Shown here: positions 22,947 through 45,285 of the stretch, one piece after another
Layout of the letters: each line of letters starts with the position of its first letter
Numbering within the stretch: position 1 is the first letter of the stretch
Sequence record: OQ411014.1
DNA length: 64,000 nt
Direction: 5' to 3' (one strand)
DNA from: Escherichia phage EJP2
Program-made: the position numbers and the translations under genes
The notes under the pieces: generated by a model
Database searches by the model: none
Told to the model about the DNA's origin: nothing
Seen by the model: only the letters and a program-made list of their open reading frames with translations

Positions 22947-22980
22947 ACTCAATTGAGGTTGTCTATTGACAGCCTCTTTT
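22947..22980 (+). terminator. hairpin aggttgtc/gacagcct followed by T7
   Basis: 8-bp stem with one G-U pair, overlaps -35 of next promoter. Confidence 0.55.
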
Positions 22981-23021: not shown

Positions 23022-23333
23022 ATGCAATACAGAACACCAGTACTGATCAATCGATACAAAAGTAAAGACTTTGATGTTTACATTGGTCGTGGGACAAAAT
23101 GGGGAAACCCGTTCCCAATCGATGAAGCATGTGGTCAAACTCGCCTAATCGTTATTGAAATGTACAGACACCAAATGTATGAATGGCTAGAAAATGGAAC
23201 CATCACTGTTCAGGATATTTTGGATTTATCGGGAAAAACCATTGCATGTTCTTGTGCACCAAAGGCATGTCATGGAGATATAATCATAGAGGTATTCAAT
23301 GAAATAGTGAGTATGATGAATGCAGGAACATAA
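23022..23333 (+). CDS. DUF4326-like small protein
   Basis: FDVYIGRGTKWGNPF resembles the YIGR...WGNPF signature recalled for DUF4326. Confidence 0.55.
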   Translation: MQYRTPVLINRYKSKDFDVYIGRGTKWGNPFPIDEACGQTRLIVIEMYRHQMYEWLENGTITVQDILDLSGKTIACSCAPKACHGDIIIEVFNEIVSMMNAGT

Positions 23334-23721
23334 AATATATGACATCATTAAAACTCTTAAAACTTGTAAGAGAGTAACATTATCTGAAAAAGTTTACTGC
23401 GGTTTAAATGATAAAAAGTGTATCATGTTCGATTGTATAGATGATGGTGAATCCAGCATTAGTATTGCTAGTCCTAAGAATCCTAATGGTGATTTTATCT
23501 TCTGTACAGTTACTGATGAACTTGAATTTGTACTCGTCAAGAGTGATGGTGCACAATCTGAAATCTTAGACTTGAGTACTGAAGATAGATTCTTTCAACG
23601 AAGTTTACTCTTTGACTTATCATTAACCTATGATGAGTATCAATCAGTACTTCATAATTTCAACAAATTTTATAACGGACTAATCAGTACTGTTATAATC
23701 TATTCAACCGAGGTCATATAA
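23320..23721 (+). CDS. hypothetical protein
   Basis: 133-aa ORF overlapping neighbours by a few nt. Confidence 0.45.
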   Translation: MQEHKIYDIIKTLKTCKRVTLSEKVYCGLNDKKCIMFDCIDDGESSISIASPKNPNGDFIFCTVTDELEFVLVKSDGAQSEILDLSTEDRFFQRSLLFDLSLTYDEYQSVLHNFNKFYNGLISTVIIYSTEVI

Positions 23722-24968
23722 TGTCAAAAAATATGCTCGAAAATATCATCGTAAAACACTACGCTGGTAGTATCGCTTATGGTACAAATACTCCCTTATC
23801 AGATGTTGATTTCCGTGGAATCTTTATGGCTCCAAAGGAATTCATCTTGTCTCCGTTCGTAAACGTAGGGGAAGCATCTGATTCAAAAGAAGAAGATACT
23901 AAATTCTACGAACTCAATAAGTTCATGAAACTAAATGTCGATGCGAACCCGAATATCCTCGAAACACTATGGGTCGATGATGAACACATCGTTGAAAGTA
24001 CTGAAATGTACCAACATCTTCGCAAGCACAGAAGTGAACTACTAAGTAATAAGATTGCATTTACTTATACTGGATTCGCATATAACCAAGTTCACCGCAT
24101 GAGCAACCATAATGGCTGGATGGATAAAGAGAGAATTGCTGAACGCAGACTCAATGAAATCATCGAAAAACATCCTTGTATTGAAGTGAAAGAGTGGATG
24201 TACGAATATTTCCCTCATTATGTCATTGACCGGATTGACTTCTCTAATGTAAAAGGTTATAGTGATGATGTTGATTTGGACTTGGATAAGTTCTTGCGTG
24301 ATAGTTCTCTGCAACTGATCAGTACTAAATCCTTAGCACAGCATCACTTCGTGCGTTTAGTACATAATTACTTACCACAGAAAGTACTTGACCGTGATTT
24401 CAACTTAGCTCATTTCAATACGAATCATGAACTAATTCACTACGGTGATAATATCTTTGCAGTAGTTCCAACTCAGGGGAAATCGAAAGTACTTTCAGTA
24501 CATAACGATTTAGTTTGGGATTCAAAGAAAGAACGTACTCCTGAAGAACTAAAAGTACTTCCATCTTTGATTGTGAAATTCAATCGCAAAGAATATGAAG
24601 AACTGAATGATAAACGCAAGCACTATCACAAGTGGAAAGAGAACCGTAACAGTATTCGTGCTGAACTGGAGTCAAAGAATGGCTTCGATACTAAGCACGC
24701 AATGCACGTGGTTCGTTTATTACGTACAGCAAAAGAAGCACTGTTGACTGGTGTCATCAACGTCAAACGTCCTGATGCGGAAGAATTACTTGCAATCCGT
24801 AATGGTGCTTGGACATATGAAGAAATGATGAAGTACTTTGAATCTGAATCTAAATTAGTAATGAACTTAGGTAAAACATCAAAAGTACTTCCATCGTCCC
24901 CAAACCGTAAACTAGCAACTCAATTAGTACTAGACTTACGTGAGATGCATTGGAAACAAGGAAAATAA
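23721..24968 (+). CDS. Pol-beta superfamily nucleotidyltransferase (PF10127-like)
   Basis: N-terminal AGSIAYGTNTPLSDVDFRGIF matches the GS...G...SDxDxRG signature; 415 aa. Confidence 0.5.
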   Translation: MSKNMLENIIVKHYAGSIAYGTNTPLSDVDFRGIFMAPKEFILSPFVNVGEASDSKEEDTKFYELNKFMKLNVDANPNILETLWVDDEHIVESTEMYQHLRKHRSELLSNKIAFTYTGFAYNQVHRMSNHNGWMDKERIAERRLNEIIEKHPCIEVKEWMYEYFPHYVIDRIDFSNVKGYSDDVDLDLDKFLRDSSLQLISTKSLAQHHFVRLVHNYLPQKVLDRDFNLAHFNTNHELIHYGDNIFAVVPTQGKSKVLSVHNDLVWDSKKERTPEELKVLPSLIVKFNRKEYEELNDKRKHYHKWKENRNSIRAELESKNGFDTKHAMHVVRLLRTAKEALLTGVINVKRPDAEELLAIRNGAWTYEEMMKYFESESKLVMNLGKTSKVLPSSPNRKLATQLVLDLREMHWKQGK

Positions 24969-31870: not shown

Positions 31871-32538
31871 TTATTGAATATGTAATTGCAATGTGTACTG
31901 CGAGTGCTGTAGCACCGTTGGGTTCTTATATTCTGTACCAGAATCGTGAAGTTATTTCGCGTAAACTGGGTAAACTCTTCGGTACTAAAAAGCTGATTGA
32001 CTGCTTAGATGAGAATCAAACTCATCTTATTGAACTGGCAGAAGATGGTATCATTCTTGAAAAAGTACCTGATATTTTTTCTTATGATGAAGAGTACAGC
32101 TTGAGTCTACTTGAAAAGATTCACCCTGATGCATCTAAAGAGTACGACCGCCGAGCGAAGATGGCACGTATCAACCATGAAGCAGACTCGGTTGTGTATA
32201 CAACTCTAATGCAGATGCGGGAAGGGAGAGTTGAAGTTGCAGGTAAAGACAAGTACAATATGGTTTTCTCGAATGGATTATCAGTCTGGACTGAAAACCG
32301 ATATTTTGCTTTCGGACACTTGACCAAGAACGACGACAATCCTCGGTTCAATACTGTTAGATTCAACTGGGAATATGAGCGTTACTCTAAATTCACATTC
32401 ATGTGGCTGGTGGATGTTTATCTTGAACATTATGAGAATGAAGTATGGCGTGGTCGCCGTGCCATGTACTCACATGATGATATTCAAGATCAAGAACAAT
32501 CTGAAAAACTAAGATTCAAGAATGCAATCACATGGTAA
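31867..32538 (+). CDS. hypothetical protein
   Basis: 223-aa ORF, ATGA overlap. Confidence 0.45.
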   Translation: MIIEYVIAMCTASAVAPLGSYILYQNREVISRKLGKLFGTKKLIDCLDENQTHLIELAEDGIILEKVPDIFSYDEEYSLSLLEKIHPDASKEYDRRAKMARINHEADSVVYTTLMQMREGRVEVAGKDKYNMVFSNGLSVWTENRYFAFGHLTKNDDNPRFNTVRFNWEYERYSKFTFMWLVDVYLEHYENEVWRGRRAMYSHDDIQDQEQSEKLRFKNAITW

Positions 32539-32783
32539 AAGAATATTATGATGCATGGATAACAGAGATTATGATATTCATGAATATTATAGACTCTGGT
32601 GTATTACAGTATGGTAATCCAAAAGCAACTCTTGAACTCTTACAGTACTGTCAAGAGGTTTGGTATCGCTGAGTTAGATGAAGAATATCATTACTTTCAA
32701 GGTGAATTACTAAAATACTTCAATGATTACAATAACTCTAGGTACGTTCCTAGATTATTTTTCTTTCATTCTGAGGATATGTA

Positions 32784-33233
32784 ATGACGTTAGAAGAATT
32801 ACTAAGTACTCATAAGTACTACATTGATGATGATAATAAAAATATTTCGGCTATCATTTCTATGTTGAATACAAAGTACAACCTACATGGTAAGTCCCCT
32901 AAAGCTGACGAAATTTTGGAATCACCGAAGAAATTTTTGATGTACAATCCAAAAACAAAGTGCATTCGACTTGTTGACAAAAGTTACTTAGCACCAGAAA
33001 CAACATTTACGGATATCGTCCGTGTGTACACTGGATTGCCATTCACTATCAATCATTTATTCGTTGAGGTGTACAGTACTGGAAGTCCTAATTACTGGAA
33101 TTATGCAGTACATAAAGGTGATGTAACACGTTACTTCAAACTGACCAAACTCAATGCTTGGCTTGAAGAAGAATACGTTGATACATCTGAAATGATCAAA
33201 ATTGAAGATTCGTACATACAAAATGTGAGATAA
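32784..33233 (+). CDS. hypothetical protein
   Basis: 149-aa ORF. Confidence 0.45.
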   Translation: MTLEELLSTHKYYIDDDNKNISAIISMLNTKYNLHGKSPKADEILESPKKFLMYNPKTKCIRLVDKSYLAPETTFTDIVRVYTGLPFTINHLFVEVYSTGSPNYWNYAVHKGDVTRYFKLTKLNAWLEEEYVDTSEMIKIEDSYIQNVR

Positions 33234-33441: not shown

Positions 33442-34071
33442 ATGACAACTCACGTTAGGTATTATATTGCATATAATGGAAGACCAGTTCGTTCTATTGG
33501 ATTAGATCTTGAGCCAGTAATGTCTGTACAGACTAATCTATACTTCAGTACTGAAGAAGAAGCAGACTCTTTCATTATGACTAGGATTGCAACTGCGTCC
33601 ACTACACTTTATCATATTCATTTTGATTGTATTGATAAGTACTCAATCGTCAAAGAAATTGTTCAGTTGGAACCGTGCAGTACTAAAACTAATTATATGC
33701 GAAACTATACTCTAACTTGGTTGCGATTACTCGACCAGGATATCTGTACTGATTCTATGATTTCCACTACTATACGTGCGTTCGTCATGCGTGGGTTTAG
33801 TACATCAGGATTGGATTTAGAAGAAGTGAAAAACTTGATTTTGGGTAATCCAAAACTTCAAAAAACCATTGACAAACTTATTCCAAAGCATATAATCTCT
33901 AATATTGAAAATTACATGCAAGATGGTTTAGTCAATGCTCCGGTGGAAGAGCTTGAATTCTTGAATCTAACAATTTCAGATGAAATGAAATTTGATCTTG
34001 ACTTCGAAGAACTCTTCCCTTACAATAAGTTCAAACCAACAAAATGGGAAAATCATGGAACTAGTAACTGA
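33442..34071 (+). CDS. hypothetical protein
   Basis: 209-aa ORF. Confidence 0.45.
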   Translation: MTTHVRYYIAYNGRPVRSIGLDLEPVMSVQTNLYFSTEEEADSFIMTRIATASTTLYHIHFDCIDKYSIVKEIVQLEPCSTKTNYMRNYTLTWLRLLDQDICTDSMISTTIRAFVMRGFSTSGLDLEEVKNLILGNPKLQKTIDKLIPKHIISNIENYMQDGLVNAPVEELEFLNLTISDEMKFDLDFEELFPYNKFKPTKWENHGTSN

Positions 34072-35308
34072 AGGTCGCAAACTCGTAACAATTCGTAAAA
34101 TCAATGCAATTGATGCAATTGAAGGTGCAGATCTGATTGTCAAAGCAACTGTTGACGGTTGGGATGTAGTTGTGAAGAAAGATGAATTCAACGTTGGGGA
34201 TTACTGTGTATTCTTCGAAATCGATTCATTCCTTCCAGTACAGACACCACAATTCGCATTCTTGGCGGGTTCAGGCTGTAAACTCGATGAACAGAATGTA
34301 GAACGTTTCCGTCTACGTACTCGTAAACTTCGCGGGGTAGTCTCTCAAGGCTTGGCTCTACCAGTATCTCTATTTGAGGCAGTACTGGAAGCTATTGACG
34401 AAGCTGGTGGTCATCACCCTGACTCGTACACTACAACGGCACGTGAAGAACTCCTAGTGAGTCTAGAGGCGAATCGTGAAGGCATTGAGCAATTCCTCAA
34501 TGTAACCAAATACGAGCGTCCTGATGAGCGTAATGGCGGTACTGGTGCATCTAAGTGCAAAGCTGCTGGTAACTTCCCTATCGTCATTCCTAAGACTGAT
34601 GAAGACCGTATTCAGAACGTAATGGGTAAGTACTCTCAGACTATGAAAGGTGTTGCATTCCGTAAATCACTGAAACTGGATGGTTCTAGCCAGACAATTG
34701 CATTCATTAGCAATCCTGATTTCTTTGTAGATAAAGTTGATGAAGAAGTCCGTGCATGGAATGAAGAGACTCAAGAACTTGAAGTTGTTGAAGTGAAGCC
34801 ATACCCGTTCCAATGGGAAGATGGTCAGGTAGCAGTATGTTCTCGCAATCTTGCGTTGAAATTTGATGCTGAATCTCACTTCTGGAAAGCAGCACTGAAA
34901 GATGATATTCCAGCACGTCTGAAAGAGTACTGTGTTCGTAATGACCGCCAACTAGCACTACAAGGCGAAGTAATGGGTCCTGGTATCCAAGGGAACCGTG
35001 AAGAACTGACCGAACATCAATTCTACGTATTCCGTATTTGGGATATTGATAATAAATGTTTCCTTGATGATGGTGATTTCTTGACACTATCTGCACTACT
35101 GGGATTGACTACAGTACCGCAAGGTGATATCGTGTACTTCTTCGATGAATACACTTCTATCAAAGAAGCATTGGCATCTGCTGACCACGCATCTATCAAG
35201 CATAAGATCGCGGAAGGCGATGTGTTCAAAAGTGTATCTAAAGTGAATGGTGTTACTGTACACTTCAAGGTAATCAACAACAAATTCTTGCTCAAATGTG
35301 AGGACTAA
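34055..35308 (+). CDS. ATP-dependent RNA ligase-like nucleotidyltransferase
   Basis: start set at ATG 34055; candidate motif I lysine in SLKLDGSS (KxDG) about 170 aa from the N-terminus, preceded by an N-terminal domain. Confidence 0.5.
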   Translation: MELVTEGRKLVTIRKINAIDAIEGADLIVKATVDGWDVVVKKDEFNVGDYCVFFEIDSFLPVQTPQFAFLAGSGCKLDEQNVERFRLRTRKLRGVVSQGLALPVSLFEAVLEAIDEAGGHHPDSYTTTAREELLVSLEANREGIEQFLNVTKYERPDERNGGTGASKCKAAGNFPIVIPKTDEDRIQNVMGKYSQTMKGVAFRKSLKLDGSSQTIAFISNPDFFVDKVDEEVRAWNEETQELEVVEVKPYPFQWEDGQVAVCSRNLALKFDAESHFWKAALKDDIPARLKEYCVRNDRQLALQGEVMGPGIQGNREELTEHQFYVFRIWDIDNKCFLDDGDFLTLSALLGLTTVPQGDIVYFFDEYTSIKEALASADHASIKHKIAEGDVFKSVSKVNGVTVHFKVINNKFLLKCED

Positions 35309-35916
35309 TGAAGAAAAAATTCGGCGTGGCGATAAATGACGCCGACTATGCTGTAACATCATATGACGATGCTGGTAAACGCCAGCATTGTCCCTTTTAT
35401 CGAAGATGGGCGAGTATGATAAATCGATGTTATGGTGATGTTGGTGCAACATACACTGAATCCTATGTATGTGATGAATGGTTAACCTTCTCTAACTTTA
35501 AGAGATGGATGGAAACACAAAAATGGGAAGGTATGGAGTTGGACAAAGATTTACTTTATATCAACAATAAGGAATATGGCCCAAATACATGTTTATTTTT
35601 ACCAAAGGTTATTAATTCACTATTCGTTGATAGTAAATCGAGCCGTGGTACTAATCCGATTGGTGTATCTTTTGAAAAACGTCGATTGAAATATGAAGCA
35701 TATATATCAATTGATAATAAGAAAAAACATCTTGGATATTTTGATAACCCAATTGATGCACATGTAAAATGGCAACATGCAAAATTGAAAGTATTGGAAG
35801 ATTTCATGAAAACGTTATCTGACCCTATACATATACAAATTGTAGATTTGCGAATCAACAAGCTAAAGAATGATATACAATCAAATATCATAACCGAATC
35901 TTTACATCATTTCTAA
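35308..35916 (+). CDS. AP2-domain DNA-binding protein, homing-endonuclease-like
   Basis: C-terminal YEAYISIDNKKKHLGYFDNPIDAHVKWQ resembles an AP2 domain; N-terminal W..M..RC pattern. Confidence 0.4.
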   Translation: MKKKFGVAINDADYAVTSYDDAGKRQHCPFYRRWASMINRCYGDVGATYTESYVCDEWLTFSNFKRWMETQKWEGMELDKDLLYINNKEYGPNTCLFLPKVINSLFVDSKSSRGTNPIGVSFEKRRLKYEAYISIDNKKKHLGYFDNPIDAHVKWQHAKLKVLEDFMKTLSDPIHIQIVDLRINKLKNDIQSNIITESLHHF

Positions 35917-35928
35917 AAAGGAAATAAT

Positions 35929-36123
35929 ATGATCAAAAAACGTCTAACTGTATATTGCAGTGGTGCACCTAATTTCTTTATCTATGGTGTAACAAAAGAT
36001 AATGAAACGTACAGCCTTATTGATAACCAGTACTGGATTCGTGCATCAAATGATTTGACACCTGCTGAAATTTCAGTAATGACTGTAGTTGAATCTGACT
36101 GTATGTATAACGTTCAAGAGTAA
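35929..36123 (+). CDS. hypothetical protein
   Basis: 64-aa ORF with aaggaaa RBS. Confidence 0.35.
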   Translation: MIKKRLTVYCSGAPNFFIYGVTKDNETYSLIDNQYWIRASNDLTPAEISVMTVVESDCMYNVQE

Positions 36124-36143
36124 ATAAAGTTGTATTGTTAGTA

Positions 36144-36172
36144 TTGACAATCAAACAGTTTCGAGATAGACT
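36144..36172 (+). promoter_or_regulatory. weak sigma70-like promoter TTGACA-N17-TAGACT
   Basis: consensus -35, poor -10; upstream of the endolysin gene. Confidence 0.3.
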
Positions 36173-36279
36173 AGTGTTTCACTAGAGCTATGTAGAAAGT
36201 CCAAAAGAGGCTTTGTGCAAACGGAGCCTAATAACTCCTGTTGCTGAAGCTACACAATAATTAGCAAATAGGAGGAATT

Positions 36280-37200
36280 GTGCATAAAGCGATACAAGAA
36301 CTCAAAACTCGTACTAAGGTTGTTCTATTAGTAAGTTTTCTGTTGCTTGCCGCTGCTATTGGATTATATGGTTTATATCAAAATGATCGTACTACATCAT
36401 CGGGTTCAGAAGAATCAGTAGTACAAAATCAAATTCAAAAGCAACCAGTTACAACGTTACCAATGCAAAAGGCAACAGTACTGGAAAGCAGGAAGCAATA
36501 CGTAGTGCAAGCAGGTGATAGTTATTGGATCATCACTAATAAGATGAAACCTAATAACGTTGAACCACTTGAGTATATGGCAGTACTGAAGAAAGTGAAT
36601 AACAATGTTCAGTTACACACTGCTGTACCAATCTACGTGCCGAATGACAATGATTTGATGCATGTTACATTACCAGATGTGGTTGTCAAATTTGACGTAT
36701 ACGACGATATTGTCGTAAACCACATCAAGGAAGCAGAAGGTTCGAAGGAAGCACAGTCTAATAACAAGAGACGTCTTCTGGGTGGTAAAGTAGGTCCGTC
36801 ATTTAGTAAAAATCGTTTCTATCCTTACAAGGACACGAAAGGAAATTATACTATTGGGTACGGTCATTATATTGGTCCCAAAGAGTCCGAAGCGAGAAAG
36901 TATCGTTTTGGGTTGACCGAACGTGAAGCACACAAACTGTTGATTCAGGATATGAAAAAGACTCGTGAAGATTTCATATTGTTGCTGAAGCGTAAAAATG
37001 CAGTGAATCTAAGTGTTGAACAGCAACGTGTTTTATACGAAATGGCATTCAACATGGGCGTTGACAAACTGAGTACATTTGGTAAACTATGGAAAAGTGT
37101 AGAACGTCAAAATGAAAAGAAGTTCAAAAAAGAAATTGAGAACTCATTGTGGTACAGACAAGTAGGCAACCGTGCTGAAATGTTACTGAGTTCTCTATAA
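36280..37200 (+). CDS. endolysin: N-terminal TM/signal-anchor, LysM-like segment, T4-lysozyme-like (GH24) domain
   Basis: GTG start with aggagg RBS; YKDTKGNYTIGYGH parallels T4 lysozyme YKDTEGYYTIGIGH; WYRQVGNRAEM parallels WYNQTPNRAKR; YVVQAGDSYWII is LysM-like. Confidence 0.75.
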   Translation: MHKAIQELKTRTKVVLLVSFLLLAAAIGLYGLYQNDRTTSSGSEESVVQNQIQKQPVTTLPMQKATVLESRKQYVVQAGDSYWIITNKMKPNNVEPLEYMAVLKKVNNNVQLHTAVPIYVPNDNDLMHVTLPDVVVKFDVYDDIVVNHIKEAEGSKEAQSNNKRRLLGGKVGPSFSKNRFYPYKDTKGNYTIGYGHYIGPKESEARKYRFGLTEREAHKLLIQDMKKTREDFILLLKRKNAVNLSVEQQRVLYEMAFNMGVDKLSTFGKLWKSVERQNEKKFKKEIENSLWYRQVGNRAEMLLSSL

Positions 37201-37207
37201 CAGAGAG

Positions 37208-37549
37208 GTGTTATATATGCTAAATGTAAACGTTCAAGGTAATGTAGAAATCACTGACGCAATTCATGAACATATTCTGGCTGAAGCGGATCATCTAGAA
37301 AAGTACAGTACTGATAAAGTACTGGAACTTGATGTTCACGTGAAAAAAGAACACAAAACTCAATACACTGTAACAATCGTTGGTAACGGCAAATCCAGTA
37401 CTGCCAACGCTGCTGATTTATACAAAGCAATCACTGACTCCTTTGGTAAAATGGATAAAGTGCTTGGTAAAGATAAGAGTGTAAAAATCAGTCGCCGTAA
37501 CAATCCTGTTCATCCTGTTGAAATTGACTTGACAGAAGACGAAGAGTAA
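37208..37549 (+). CDS. hypothetical protein
   Basis: 113-aa ORF. Confidence 0.45.
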   Translation: MLYMLNVNVQGNVEITDAIHEHILAEADHLEKYSTDKVLELDVHVKKEHKTQYTVTIVGNGKSSTANAADLYKAITDSFGKMDKVLGKDKSVKISRRNNPVHPVEIDLTEDEE

Positions 37550-37560
37550 TACATAATACA

Positions 37561-37586
37561 AGGAAGCCATATGGCTTCCTTTTTTA
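37561..37586 (+). terminator. hairpin aggaagccat/atggcttcct followed by T6
   Basis: perfect 10-bp palindrome plus T-tract. Confidence 0.85.
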
Positions 37587-37590
37587 ATAT

Positions 37591-38139
37591 ATGGAGAACA
37601 CAATGAGTGAATTTACAAAGGTAATCAATAAGGTTCGTAGTTTCACTGCTGAAGATTGGCACAGAACCAAACATGGCTCGTGGGAATCTTTTGACAAATA
37701 TAGTTTTCGTTCAGCAGATTATGAAATTATGTCCGAAGATATGGAAGATTTTGTTCTAGGTGATAGTACTCCATATCGTGAAGTACTCCCACTAATCGGT
37801 CATGTTGTTTGGCACGCTGAAGAGATGTCATATAGTAAAGATCTGCACTCAATTCAAATTATTGTTGGGTCTTCTAAAAGGAAAGGTGATATCACACTAT
37901 ATGTGCGTAAAGATTTGGTGTATCTGGTAAATGACACATTACGATACACGGAAAATCCCGAAGACTGCCCTACAGAATCGCAGTACTTCCAAATCTTACT
38001 TGAACAACCTGAATTTCCTGACATGTCCTACGATGAGTTCAAATCTTTGTTCACACTGTATGATCATTTGAACGAGGTAATCACAAAAGGTAAAACAATG
38101 ACATTTGCTGGGAGTAGATATCATGATTACAATGCTTGA
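37591..38139 (+). CDS. hypothetical protein
   Basis: 182-aa ORF. Confidence 0.45.
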   Translation: MENTMSEFTKVINKVRSFTAEDWHRTKHGSWESFDKYSFRSADYEIMSEDMEDFVLGDSTPYREVLPLIGHVVWHAEEMSYSKDLHSIQIIVGSSKRKGDITLYVRKDLVYLVNDTLRYTENPEDCPTESQYFQILLEQPEFPDMSYDEFKSLFTLYDHLNEVITKGKTMTFAGSRYHDYNA

Positions 38140-38242
38140 AGAAGACTGGGGCGTAGGTGGGGATTACAATCCATTTGAACCTGAAGAAAAAGAAGAGTCC
38201 CCATCGTGGTGGGATTGGGTTCGTGGATTATTCGGGCGATAA
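38123..38242 (+). CDS. tiny Trp-rich ORF (39 aa)
   Basis: hand-translated MITMLEEDWGVGGDYNPFEPEEKEESPSWWDWVRGLFGR; fills the gap before the paralog array. Confidence 0.25.
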   Translation: MITMLEEDWGVGGDYNPFEPEEKEESPSWWDWVRGLFGR

Positions 38243-38243
38243 T

Positions 38244-38657
38244 ATGAAAATAGAACCTGAACGCATTGCTAAACTAAAACAACTCATGGAACATACGTTA
38301 GAACTTCCACGAGAAAATCTAACATCATTCACAACCAAACCTTGGTGTACAGGTTGGTGGGTTAGTGATTATGTTTATGCTGATTATGACCACAACGAGC
38401 TAATGATTTGTGTACTGAAAAGTGACGTGGTGTGGGGACAGACTGGTAAGTTATACATAAGTTCAAATCACGTTCAATTGATAAAAACTGCACCACCGTT
38501 TACACTTAGCGTTCCGAGAATCAGTACTGAAGAAGAGTATTTTCAACAGTCAACACTTCATGATTTGACAAATTTGGACTTGGATTTCTTTTTGACTTGT
38601 AATAAACTCTATTCACTATGTTGCAGTTTACACACGATTGGGGATACAGATGTATAG
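38244..38657 (+). CDS. paralog-array protein 1 (conserved C-terminal STEEE...LDFF motif)
   Basis: start at ATG 38244; C-terminus ISTEEEYFQQSTLHDLTNLDLDFFLTCNKLY. Confidence 0.5.
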   Translation: MKIEPERIAKLKQLMEHTLELPRENLTSFTTKPWCTGWWVSDYVYADYDHNELMICVLKSDVVWGQTGKLYISSNHVQLIKTAPPFTLSVPRISTEEEYFQQSTLHDLTNLDLDFFLTCNKLYSLCCSLHTIGDTDV

Positions 38658-39042
38658 TCGTATGCTAAAAGAACTGAATGAACTTCTGGTGAATGTATTG
38701 GGATGGCCTGCTGATAATTACAGATACATCAGAGAACGTGATTTAGGAACCATCAGAGATTGCTGGGTGAATAAATTCACATTCGCAGAAGATAATTGTG
38801 GTGATGTTTCGGTATCTTTGTCTAAATGTTCGGATATTGATTTTTGTTACATCAAGATATTGGAAGATGCAGTGGAGTTCCGAAAAGGATTGTCTACGAT
38901 TTGGAGTTACCCACGATTGAGTACTGAAGAAGAGTTTTTTCAATTATCAGTACTGCATGATACATCTGGCTTGGATTTGGACTTCTTTTTGAATTGCACT
39001 AAACTATACAACCTGGGCAAAATTGCACTAATAGAGGGATAA
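38650..39042 (+). CDS. paralog-array protein 2
   Basis: C-terminus LSTEEEFFQLSVLHDTSGLDLDFFLNCTKLY; start overlaps upstream stop. Confidence 0.5.
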   Translation: MYSRMLKELNELLVNVLGWPADNYRYIRERDLGTIRDCWVNKFTFAEDNCGDVSVSLSKCSDIDFCYIKILEDAVEFRKGLSTIWSYPRLSTEEEFFQLSVLHDTSGLDLDFFLNCTKLYNLGKIALIEG

Positions 39043-39043
39043 C

Positions 39044-39454
39044 ATGGCTATGAATCCAAATAAAGTAGTACAGCTAAGAGATTTACTACCGTACATTTTA
39101 GAACTTCCTGAGAAAGCACATAAACGATTGTCCTTCCGATATGAAGTTGGTGGTGGGTGGATCAATGACTTTGTGAATGTATTTTTCATCAATGACAAGC
39201 TCACAGTTTCCGTGACTGCTGATGTGGAGTTTAAAACTGGTTACTTCACTATAAGCGAAAATACAGTTGAATATTACACTTCCAATAAAGGTGGTGCGAA
39301 ACCGGAAATAACGTACAAACTTGTCAGTACTGAAGAAGAGCATTTCCAGGAGTCACTAATTCATGATTTAACACTTTTAGATCTGGACTTCTTCCTGAAC
39401 TGTGCTAAAATATACGCACTATGTGATGATTTGATCACGATTGATTATTATTGA
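39044..39454 (+). CDS. paralog-array protein 3
   Basis: C-terminus VSTEEEHFQESLIHDLTLLDLDFFLNCAKIY. Confidence 0.5.
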   Translation: MAMNPNKVVQLRDLLPYILELPEKAHKRLSFRYEVGGGWINDFVNVFFINDKLTVSVTADVEFKTGYFTISENTVEYYTSNKGGAKPEITYKLVSTEEEHFQESLIHDLTLLDLDFFLNCAKIYALCDDLITIDYY

Positions 39455-39462
39455 GGATTATA

Positions 39463-39864
39463 ATGTACAATAGTGTAATGATGCAGCATTTCACTACAAT
39501 GATTGGTGCTGCCATGAATAGTCCTAAACTGAAAACGTTACGCATCATTGATGGTGCGTGCTGGATTACAGAAAATGCTTTTATCTGGATGCATGAGAGT
39601 CGTGATAAATTAACTATCACAATAAAGCCATCATTTAGTTTAGAAGAGATACTACAACATAGTAGTATTGATATCAAACATGATAGTATAGATATTCGTA
39701 ACTCCCATAACCCAAAAGGTATTAATATCCCACGTATTAGTACTGAAGAAGAGTACTTTCAACAAAGTACTATTCATGATTTATCAAATTTCAACCTTGA
39801 TTTTTTCAAACAATGTGCAGTACTGTTCGATAAAACATGGGATCAACTTACATGGTGTAAGTAG
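39463..39864 (+). CDS. paralog-array protein 4
   Basis: C-terminus ISTEEEYFQQSTIHDLSNFNLDFFKQCAVLF; gagga RBS. Confidence 0.5.
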   Translation: MYNSVMMQHFTTMIGAAMNSPKLKTLRIIDGACWITENAFIWMHESRDKLTITIKPSFSLEEILQHSSIDIKHDSIDIRNSHNPKGINIPRISTEEEYFQQSTIHDLSNFNLDFFKQCAVLFDKTWDQLTWCK

Positions 39865-39891
39865 TATTTTACATTATTATGAGGAACTAAA

Positions 39892-41001
39892 ATGAAAAAG
39901 TATTTGGTTGGTGGTTTTGTACGCGATAAGCTACTTGGCTTACGTCCTAAAGACAAAGATTATGTCTTGGTAGGAGCGACCCCGCGTGATATTCAGTACT
40001 TAAAAAGTATTGGATATGAGCAGGTTGGTGCAGACTTCCCTGTGTTCTTGGATAAGGACGGCAATGAGCACGCACTTGCCCGTACTGAACGCAAGGTGTC
40101 TGATGGCTATAATGGCTTTGAAGTGAATACACAAGGTGTAACGCTTCAGGAAGACTTGTATCGTCGTGATTTGACCATCAATGCGATTGCCTTTGACCCA
40201 CAGTTAAAGGTACACGTAGACCCATATGGTGGCAAAGAAGACCTAAAGAACAAAGTACTGCGACATGTATCTGAACATTTTGAAGAAGATCCAGTACGTA
40301 TTCTGCGTATCGCTCGTTTCAGTGCACGTTATTCGGACTTTACAGTACATGAAAGTACTGAATCGTTGATTCGCCGTATGATCAATCGTGGCGATATTTC
40401 TGAATTGACTAAAGAGCGAGTGTACGTAGAATTCGAGAAAGCATTCTCCGAAGAAGAGCCAGTTATCTTCCTGGAGAAGCTATCCAAATGGGGAGCCATG
40501 AGTAAGTTGATTCCTGGTAATCCTGAAAGTACTTACAAGACTATTGAATACATTAGTTCCAATTGTACTTTAGCGTATAAGGATTTTTACTTGTGGGCTG
40601 AACTAATTGGTTCTAATGAAGTACAAAAAGATGGAGTCTTTGGTCAGGTCAAGCTACCATCGCGTTACTCTAAGTTCAGTGCGTATGTATGCAAGCACGC
40701 GGATAGTATCAAGAATTTCCGTAAGAGCACCCCAGAAGAAATGGTAAATATTCTTACTGAGATGAGCGTAAAGAACAACGGTGGTGAAGAGTACTTGTAC
40801 AAAGTACTGGAATACTTTATCCTACGTAAAGAGATTGATTTGGACTTAGAAGATTTGATTATTCGAGTTTATGATCGCTTTGAGAATACGGTCATTGGTA
40901 ATATTGATCAGATGCTTAAAGATGGAACTATCACTTCACGTGAAATTCCTTCTTTTGTGAAAGAGAAGCGAATCGCTGAGGTGGAAAAAATCTTCAAATA
41001 A
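39892..41001 (+). CDS. CCA-adding tRNA nucleotidyltransferase / poly(A) polymerase family
   Basis: GGFVRDKLLG, DKDYV and RRDLTINA head-domain motifs; 369 aa. Confidence 0.8.
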   Translation: MKKYLVGGFVRDKLLGLRPKDKDYVLVGATPRDIQYLKSIGYEQVGADFPVFLDKDGNEHALARTERKVSDGYNGFEVNTQGVTLQEDLYRRDLTINAIAFDPQLKVHVDPYGGKEDLKNKVLRHVSEHFEEDPVRILRIARFSARYSDFTVHESTESLIRRMINRGDISELTKERVYVEFEKAFSEEEPVIFLEKLSKWGAMSKLIPGNPESTYKTIEYISSNCTLAYKDFYLWAELIGSNEVQKDGVFGQVKLPSRYSKFSAYVCKHADSIKNFRKSTPEEMVNILTEMSVKNNGGEEYLYKVLEYFILRKEIDLDLEDLIIRVYDRFENTVIGNIDQMLKDGTITSREIPSFVKEKRIAEVEKIFK

Positions 41002-41002
41002 A

Positions 41003-41032
41003 TTGAGATATTTTCGAAAAAAGTGATATATT
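41003..41032 (+). promoter_or_regulatory. sigma70-like promoter TTGAGA-N18-TATATT with TGA
   Basis: same architecture as the family, weaker -10. Confidence 0.4.
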
Positions 41033-41064
41033 ATAAGTATCTGAGATATGTAAGAGATAAAAAT

Positions 41065-41742
41065 ATGCGATATACATGCGGGATAATATTTTATCGAAAC
41101 GGTCAGATACTTGTAGGTCACACGACTGGTCAGAGTCATTGGGATTTACCGAAAGGTAAGACTGAAGGTTCTGAGACATTCAAGGAAGCGGCAGTTCGTG
41201 AATGCTATGAAGAAACTGGATACAGTATTGATGAACGAGATTTACTGTACTTAGGTGATGTATCATACAGAAAGGGAAAGCGTTTAGTACTGTTCTTTTA
41301 CACAGCCAAGACGAAACCAATTGCTGAAGAGTTGCAATGTATCAGTACTTACACGAATAAGTACGGTATTGTACGTCCAGAGTTGGACAAATTCAAGTAC
41401 ATAGACATTGAGGACTGTGAACTCTACTTGACTGAACGGATGTGTGATAGTATAATCAAAGCTATTACACAATTTGATAAAAAGACAAATAAAAAGGAAG
41501 ATAATATGAAAGTTGTAATTTATGGTCGTAAAGCTGGTTGTAAGTGGTGTACTACTGCTAAAGAAGTTTGTGAAACTAACTCAATTGATTTTGATTTCAT
41601 TGATTTAGATGAAGCTGGTATTGATGGTGCTAAACTCGCTGAAATTTGTGGCACTCCAGTACGTACTGTTCCACAAATTTTCGTTGACGATCAACACATT
41701 GGTGGTTGTACTGAGTTTATTTCGCACCTATCCAAAATGTAA
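41065..41742 (+). CDS. Nudix hydrolase fused in frame to a glutaredoxin/NrdH-like domain
   Basis: perfect Nudix box GKTEGSETFKEAAVRECYEETG; C-terminal MKVVIYGRKAGCKWC (CxxC) preceded by internal RBS aggaag at 41494 and ATG 41506, no stop between the domains. Confidence 0.6.
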   Translation: MRYTCGIIFYRNGQILVGHTTGQSHWDLPKGKTEGSETFKEAAVRECYEETGYSIDERDLLYLGDVSYRKGKRLVLFFYTAKTKPIAEELQCISTYTNKYGIVRPELDKFKYIDIEDCELYLTERMCDSIIKAITQFDKKTNKKEDNMKVVIYGRKAGCKWCTTAKEVCETNSIDFDFIDLDEAGIDGAKLAEICGTPVRTVPQIFVDDQHIGGCTEFISHLSKM

Positions 41743-45202: not shown

Positions 45203-45285
45203 TCCCTTTCAGTACATTAGATTTAATCCTCCAATAAATAACATTATACGAATATTCTATAATACCAATTTTTTGGAGGATTAAA

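Follow-up and report, generated by a model that had tools for sequence, protein, structure and literature searches.

A multigene family apparently confined to RaK2/PBECO4-like jumbo phages forms a tandem array in a putative RNA-repair gene island

Most genes of RaK2/PBECO4-like jumbo phages have no assigned function, and one group of such genes lies in the DNA analyzed here, a stretch of 64,000 nucleotides (nt) from Escherichia phage EJP2 (OQ411014.1; hereafter the window). Four consecutive open reading frames (ORFs), which we call P1 to P4, encode proteins that end in a similar block beginning with the residues STEEE, while the codons for these residues contain the DNA word AGTACTG. The locus raises the question of whether the four genes form a true protein family or share only what the DNA word imposes on them, and, if they are a family, what the array might do for the phage. 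We find by sequence comparison that P1 to P4, probably an upstream neighbor (P0), and a distant copy at 23320 belong to a multigene family specific to RaK2/PBECO4-like jumbo phages.

A sequence-only reading of the window had described four tandem ORFs of about 131-138 amino acids (aa) with a shared C-terminal block and diverged N-terminal two-thirds. The four ORFs are present on the + strand, at 130-137 aa; they are consecutive and tightly packed, with Shine-Dalgarno-like sequences upstream of each and an overlap of 8 nt between the end of P1 and the start of P2. Pairwise BLASTP comparisons gave E values of 1e-12 to 7e-27, with P1, P2, and P3 aligned to one another over 127-135 residues. When each protein was cut just before the motif and the halves were compared apart, the C-terminal 34-40 residues were 51-71% identical, while the N-terminal parts of about 90 residues were at most 28% identical, confirming the contrast that had been described. 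The N-terminal parts alone could still be matched between P1 and P3 (E 4e-9) and between P2 and P3 (E 0.011), while the other pairs were not detectable pairwise. Together, these alignments indicate that P1 to P4 are true paralogs whose N-terminal parts have diverged yet remain homologous, and that the whole protein is one homologous domain.

The conserved block can be written as the signature [ST]EEE[FY]FQxS[LT][IL]xD ... [LY][DE]xF, which is carried by P1 to P4 and by the 23320 copy, or more loosely, for proteins of about 120-180 aa, as [ST]-E-E-E-[FYH]-F-Q-x-S-[LT]-[IL]-x-[DN] ... [LY]-[DE]-x-[FY]. In an alignment of 99 sequences the most conserved positions, in P4 numbering, are E95, F99, Q100, S102, and D106. 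Local duplication, as had been proposed, is borne out by the finding that P1 to P3 are one another's best matches, forming a group beside the orthologous group of P4, and by relatives that hold 3-6 members of differing subfamilies at the same place. Within the C-terminal block, synonymous divergence (dS) between paralogs ranges from 1.2 to >3, with non-synonymous divergence (dN) at 0.18-0.51. Since synonymous sites are saturated even inside this conserved block, the duplications behind P1 to P4 are old, and recent gene conversion can be excluded as the source of the C-terminal conservation.

The possibility that the similarity is an artefact of the DNA word deserves separate treatment, since all four paralogs write S-T-E-E-E with the identical 15 nt AGTACTGAAGAAGAG, and since AGTACTG is hugely over-represented in the genome. 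In the window, AGTACTG occurs 255 times on both strands versus 10.3 expected and AGTACT 243 times versus 54 expected, and the palindrome CAGTACTG is the commonest 8-mer, with 83 copies versus 3.8 expected under a second-order Markov model. These copies lie mostly inside + strand genes (78 of 83), in two codon frames and rarely in the third, at a spacing somewhat more regular than random (coefficient of variation 0.73). Where S-T is followed by a codon starting with G, it is written AGT-ACT in 59 of 66 cases, compared to 16.5% expected from codon usage. The excess is found in all relatives checked (L001 to L010), at 0.3-1.3 copies per kb. The preference is thus a genome-wide bias at the level of DNA that accounts for the identical STEEE codons in P1 to P4.

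However, this bias does not impose the protein motif, because [ST]EEE[FY]FQxS is kept in family members that lack AGTACTG. Members in Erwinia phage Hallingskeid and in the related loci L004, L006, and L008 retain x-[TS]-E-E-E-[FY]-F-Q-x-S-L while their codons and the residue in front differ from those in P1 to P4 (ATG ACA GAA, AAG ACG GAA, TTG TCT GAA, and GGT ACT GAA, for example). The similarity is not limited to the residues that the DNA word could dictate: it covers 34-40 residues at high identity and extends over the full length of the proteins. We regard the artefact reading as refuted; the bias explains codon choice only, and at most it may have favored the Ser that precedes T-E-E-E. 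A binding, modification, or repair-drive site is a possible cause of the AGTACT(G) excess, and the literature searched for CAGTACTG or AGTACT in jumbo phages held nothing relevant. Separately, four palindromic hexamers have zero copies in the window, namely AAGCTT (21.7 expected), CAGCTG (14.3), CCATGG (11.3), and CGATCG (5.3); this looks like classical restriction-site avoidance, unlike the AGTACT excess.

With the family established by these comparisons, we considered its extent in the window (Table 1). The array had been taken to start at 38123, but this position is the start of a separate conserved gene of 39 aa, and the first paralog, P1, starts only at 38244. The four paralogs themselves are real, but the description of an array of four was too narrow, since the array is longer if the probable member P0 is counted and a sixth copy lies at 23320-23721. 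In P0, the sequence PTESQYFQ...MSYDEFKSLFTLYDHL falls into register with the block of the family as a degenerate form of it, and the gene occupies the same slot as the family arrays of relatives. P0 matched a profile hidden Markov model (HMM) built without it at E 0.023 (conditional E 1.7e-5) and gave P 0.016 over 41 columns with hhalign; because these tests that leave P0 out are weak, we rank it as a probable member only. The protein of the sixth copy matched an HMM built without its own sequence at E 4.6e-8. Iterated HMM searches of the window found no members beyond P0 to P4 and this copy. The 39-aa gene overlaps the end of P0 by 17 nt, and homologs of 38-40 aa are found within the array or at its end in the related loci L001, L002, L003, L006, L007, and L008; the phages with such a homolog include Hallingskeid, PBECO4, and phAPEC6 (gp288c), and its position in the array varies.

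Table 1. Coordinates of the family genes and associated features in the window
Feature	Position	Strand	Description
P0	37603-38139	+	178 aa; probably a family member, divergent and with an extended N-terminal part
Small gene	38123-38242	+	39 aa, acidic, Trp-rich, non-family; MITMLEEDWGV...WWDW... (MITMLEEDWGV...SWWDWVRGLFGR)
P1	38244-38657	+	137-aa family member; GTG at 38223 as alternative start; STEEE from 38523
P2	38650-39042	+	Family member of 130 aa from ATG, 134 aa from TTG at 38638; STEEE from 38920
P3	39044-39454	+	136-aa family member; STEEE from 39326
P4	39463-39864	+	Family member of 133 aa from ATG, 137 aa from TTG at 39451; STEEE from 39739
Sixth family member	23320-23721	+	133 aa, LSTEDRFFQRSLLFDL...; between the DUF4326 gene and the RlaP nucleotidyltransferase gene (23721-24968)
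Gene trio	23022-24968	+ (family member)	DUF4326, family member, and RlaP nucleotidyltransferase; overlapping stop/start codons
CCA-adding tRNA nucleotidyltransferase	39892-41001	+	PF01743 and PF12627; directly downstream of the array
Sigma-70-type promoter-like site	37529-37557	+	TTGACA-17-CATAAT, 11/12 consensus match; in the last HPF codons, upstream of the array
Terminator-like hairpin	37560-37581	+	GC-rich, then T-run; 9-bp stem, -14.4 kcal/mol, z -3.9

Sequence comparison places the window among the RaK2/PBECO4-like jumbo phages, with Hallingskeid (366 kb) as the closest: the CCA-adding enzyme shares 75.6% identity with that of Hallingskeid and about 61% with its counterparts in PBECO4-like Asteriusvirus phages, and these phages have the gene order of the window. 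No match to the array region turned up among 50,697 phage records searched with megablast, and tblastn with P4 matched only Hallingskeid. Two metagenomic contigs carry the same array: L003, which is nearly identical, and L010, at about 98-99% identity. In each of the related loci L001 to L010, the slot between the lysozyme/HPF genes and the gene for the CCA-adding enzyme holds 3-6 family members, and in every relative examined its content is family members plus the small 38-40 aa gene. The number of members is five in the window, six in Hallingskeid, four in L004/L005, and three each in PBECO4 and phAPEC6, in L006/L007, and in L008. The hypothetical proteins XPP58776-XPP58782 of Hallingskeid (except XPP58779, which is the small ORF), gp035, gp036, and gp038 of PBECO4, and gp289c-gp291c of phAPEC6 belong to the same family and slot, are annotated as hypothetical, and resemble P1 to P4 in motif and by profile HMM (E 1e-14 to 1e-37). 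Unlike the window, however, these three phages hold a clear ortholog (40-63%) of P4 only. Orthologs of P4 are 63% identical in L004 (6001-6399) and 40% identical in Hallingskeid (L001, 6789-7187), while P1 to P3 have no clear ortholog in the relatives, which in turn hold subfamilies missing from the window. Since the subfamilies differ in this way, the slot gains and loses members. Orthologs of the sixth copy are found in 51 phage records, and those of P4 and the sixth copy extend across Escherichia, Salmonella, Klebsiella, and Erwinia phages.

To what extent the family reaches beyond these phages can be read from wider searches. A word-index search returned 27 proteins, a second one with a diverse alignment returned 6 proteins, and a related-loci search with a narrow alignment returned 5 loci. 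An exhaustive profile search of 1.84 billion representatives yielded 28 clusters at 50% identity, all of about 100-180 aa, and where the source of these matches was recorded it was a contig of about 350 kb or a jumbo phage. Structure matches in BFVD were limited to uncharacterised proteins of GAP32, CBB, RaK2, pEa_SNUABM_50, UB, SP27, and fHe-Yen9-04. These results point to a narrow family, found only in RaK2/PBECO4-like jumbo phages. A pattern scan of IMG/VR added further arrays, more diverged and with 4-8 members, on four ~350-kb contigs, so the superfamily is bigger than the strict HMM count. Among PHROGs, phrog_21500, 17453, 12674, 38694, and others gave weak profile matches (E 7e-7 to 1e-3) over the C-terminal block only; the family is scattered over many PHROGs, every one of unknown function. 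Pfam, NCBIfam, and PADLOC contained no credible match or model for it, and the literature searched held no account of it, nor anything relevant on anti-defence in Asteriusvirus. Tandem paralogs have been reported in related jumbo phages, with 22 paralogous ORFs in CBB (PMC5259590); such families are already known in jumbo phages, and for this one we found no earlier description.

The best lead to the role of the family lies in the genes that directly follow its two loci. Around the array are genes for an RNA ligase, HPF, lysozyme, the CCA-adding enzyme, a Nudix-glutaredoxin protein, and a Macro-domain protein, to which the L006 neighborhood adds TROVE-like DUF2828 and 2H phosphoesterase genes, and gene content of this kind gives good support to the view that the array holds a fixed slot in an RNA-repair gene island of this phage group. 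The sixth copy is likewise embedded among such genes, identified by Pfam; it lies directly upstream of the RlaP gene in the window and in Salmonella phage Munch, whereas in Hallingskeid a 153-aa ORF separates its ortholog from the RlaP nucleotidyltransferase gene, the order of the trio being otherwise kept. Both family loci of the window immediately precede a gene for a Pol-beta-type RNA-repair nucleotidyltransferase. In several phages the stop codon of the family gene overlaps the nucleotidyltransferase start as TAATG or ATGA: the sixth copy and RlaP overlap as TAATG in the window, and in L001, L004, and L006 the last family gene shares nucleotides of its stop codon with the ATG of the CCA-adding enzyme. 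In the literature, RlaP and CCA-adding enzymes count as part of the RNA repair with which jumbo phages counter host RNases (PMC7824862). A search of Rfam found no RNA family in 36000-41200, and there are no tRNA genes in the window.

Monomer predictions suggest how the conserved block and the rest of the protein relate in space. The AlphaFold2 model of P4, built from a diverse alignment of 25 sequences, is confident (predicted local distance difference test [pLDDT] 90.4, predicted template modelling score [pTM] 0.85) and runs from an N-terminal helix (2-18) through six antiparallel strands, the third and fourth of which are separated by a short helix, to a C-terminal helical hairpin (95-104 and 112-128). 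The model of P1 agrees with it but is less confident (pLDDT 73.7). The family block falls on the C-terminal hairpin, with T94-E95-E96-E97 of P4 at the N-terminus of its first helix, where T-E-E-E may act as a helix N-capping box. The models give good support to a division in which the predicted sheet is the variable part of the protein and the hairpin the conserved part. P1 to P4 have isoelectric points of 4.6-6.0, and the family proteins are without a hydrophobic segment, membrane segment, or signal peptide and look soluble and cytoplasmic. Overall, as far as modelling goes, each protein is well described as one small alpha/beta domain of about 130 aa, soluble and mildly acidic.

A sequence-profile search of the PDB gave nothing below E 0.06, and no close solved relative of the P4 fold was found. 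The polo-box domain has a beta6-alpha fold, but the polo-box domains of PLK1/2/4 and Cdc5 differ from the family in their low Z scores and 4-6% identity, and the family has no kinase context and has extra N- and C-terminal helices. Proteins of the p32/MAM33/gC1qBP group consist of an N-terminal helix, a seven-stranded sheet, and two C-terminal helices, and they form a doughnut-shaped homotrimer. We considered whether the family members might be acidic oligomers of this kind that serve phage processes as a scaffold or chaperone instead of being conflict proteins. Pfam gave no match to MAM33/p32/gC1qBP at E <= 1 and the PDB profile search no p32 chain at E <= 10, and we think this explanation improbable.

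The closeness of the L010 contig allowed the evolution of the array to be followed at short range. The ratio of non-synonymous to synonymous substitution rates (dN/dS) against L010 is 0.13 for P0, 0.26 for P1, 0.07 for P2, and 0.19 for P4, while P3 shows 2 synonymous and 0 non-synonymous changes and the 39-aa gene 7 and 0. From these values of 0-0.26 it follows that the array genes are functional and under purifying selection. Across 34055-39864, dS is patchy (0.02 to 0.40): it reaches 0.07-0.40 in the RNA ligase, lysozyme, and HPF genes, P0, the small gene, P2, and P4 but stays at about 0.02 in P1 and P3, with flanks at about 0.01-0.02, which suggests mosaic recombination among relatives within the RNA-repair island. 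In the L003 contig, the counterpart of P1 (4506-4919) differs by 6 non-synonymous and 1 synonymous changes, while flanks of about 4.7 kb have only 2 synonymous ones; this could reflect local diversification, recombination, or low-coverage assembly noise, and we give the excess little weight because the contig, judging by its name, has about 4x coverage. Two other differences were seen nearby. L010 lacks about 600 bp at 35305-35932, a stretch that separates the RNA ligase gene from the next small gene and in which L003 has a 134-aa gene; this is a one-gene indel between close relatives. Around 32500-32800 (coordinates unreliable), the window's version of a 150-aa L010 gene (3492-3944) aligns in part, at only about 47% identity, and its neighbors are 99% identical to L010; this gene may have been replaced or truncated.

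Signals for expression are also conserved. The sigma-70-type site upstream of the array has an equivalent, TTGACA-17-TAnnnT, in Hallingskeid, PBECO4, L004, and L006, and a weaker one in L008; because L006 is without an HPF gene, coding constraint cannot explain the -35 hexamer there. The terminator-like hairpin begins 3 nt after the -10 hexamer, so that a transcript from this promoter would start within the 5' arm of the hairpin, and hairpin and T-run are found at the same place in all relatives. The combined element might stop upstream transcripts and let new ones pass. By these signals, host RNA polymerase would transcribe the array early, together with the gene for the CCA-adding enzyme. 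The motif ATAAATA, described as late-promoter-like for CBB and GAP32 (PMC5259590), is absent from the array; in the window it occurs at 45234, 48006, 48068, and 59255, close in front of the genes for tail sheath and tail tube. The trio of DUF4326, family member, and RlaP genes is preceded at 22966 by a sigma-70 promoter that matches the consensus perfectly (12/12). Mass spectrometry of phAPEC6 detected 62 virion proteins, and gp289c-gp291c are not among them, which gives good support to the view that the family homologs are non-virion proteins.

What, then, might the array do? Our preferred reading, which we hold tentatively, is that the family members are made early, stay in the cytoplasm, and act by binding in the struggle between phage and host over RNA; early timing, binding, and the connection with RNA repair are each inferred. 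The conserved hairpin would serve as a common scaffold or docking surface while the variable sheet would recognize different partners. These might be host RNA-targeting effectors, which would be inhibited, or alternatively the neighboring CCA-adding enzyme and RlaP with their tRNA substrates, which would be assisted. An anti-defence role, one of the two roles that the sequence-only reading had in mind, is plausible but unproven: the conserved promoter, the turnover in copy number, and the restricted distribution favor it, and the signs of an arms race are mixed, with dN/dS at 0-0.26 yet a subfamily content that turns over between relatives. The other, a host-specificity family of receptor-binding or virion-associated proteins, shares with the array no more than a broad layout in which a conserved module is linked to a variable portion. 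We rejected it as very improbable because the homologs are not in the phAPEC6 virion proteome and the proteins look soluble and cytoplasmic; the genes also stand among RNA-metabolism genes and have no late-promoter motif. Tandem families that expand and contract, encode non-structural proteins, and have an established role in conflict with the host are found in other large viruses, such as the multigene families (MGF) of African swine fever virus and the host-range families of poxviruses. By analogy, the array resembles them in its tandem paralogs, conserved module, and variable copy number, but there is no sequence or structural relationship and the conflict role is here inferred only.

Several observations weigh against a role in the conflict over RNA. 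The adjacency to nucleotidyltransferase genes was noticed post hoc and at two loci, and it may have been kept among related phages through shared ancestry alone; in the distant arrays L011 to L015, no nucleotidyltransferase was found among the 10 larger neighboring ORFs scanned. No library or PDB match assigns an activity to the family, and searches of Pfam, NCBIfam, PADLOC (defence systems), and the PDB gave no characterised relative. There is no sign of positive selection between close relatives, the P1 counterpart in the low-coverage L003 contig being the sole exception. Early transcription rests on a sequence consensus, and the hairpin right after the -10 hexamer could terminate array transcripts. 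Alternatively, the proteins might be generic early inhibitors for host takeover or anti-defence, unrelated to RNA repair; every paralog would then bind and block a host protein of its own, be it a defence effector or a housekeeping hub, and the adjacency to repair genes would be inherited synteny only. Small, acidic, soluble, non-virion proteins behind a sigma-70-type promoter, with copy number and subfamily content that vary between relatives and with diverged arrays amid small hypothetical ORFs and no repair enzyme among the 10 larger neighboring ORFs scanned, speak for this explanation, but dN/dS is well below 1 and both window loci abut repair nucleotidyltransferase genes, with stop/start overlaps in several phages; we consider it possible, if rather unlikely. 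That the genes are dispensable, nearly neutral duplicates persisting in a part of a very large genome that tolerates them would account for the differing number and identity of members among relatives and would have parallels in the tandem paralogs of related jumbo phages, including those of CBB (PMC5259590). However, every member is under purifying selection, the motif is conserved although synonymous sites are saturated, and orthologs of P4 and the 23320 copy span phages of four host genera, so that neutrality, too, seems improbable. Finally, the family might be a modular adaptor system, an idea that we put forward as speculative and unlikely, in which the invariant hairpin docks on one common partner, for instance the adjacent Pol-beta-type nucleotidyltransferases (CCA-adding enzyme, RlaP) or a host hub, while the sheet of each paralog chooses a different target, be it a tRNA species that has been damaged or an RNase effector of the host. 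By analogy, such a system would correspond in phages to the substrate-receptor families of which F-box proteins are one example, and it would serve the conflict over tRNA.

Work toward phage therapy is yielding many new isolates of RaK2/PBECO4-like jumbo phages, while more than 80% of their genes are without a function (83% in phAPEC6; PMC7247149). For one family among these genes there is now a signature, a confident fold model, a measure of its extent, an apparently fixed place in the RNA-repair island, and a picture of its turnover between relatives. The protein motif has also been separated from the coincident and very unusual genome-wide AGTACT(G) motif, which may be the more interesting and stranger feature of this genome. 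Altogether, these findings provide a small, testable set of candidates that may act as inhibitors of host RNA-targeting defences or as helpers of tRNA repair.

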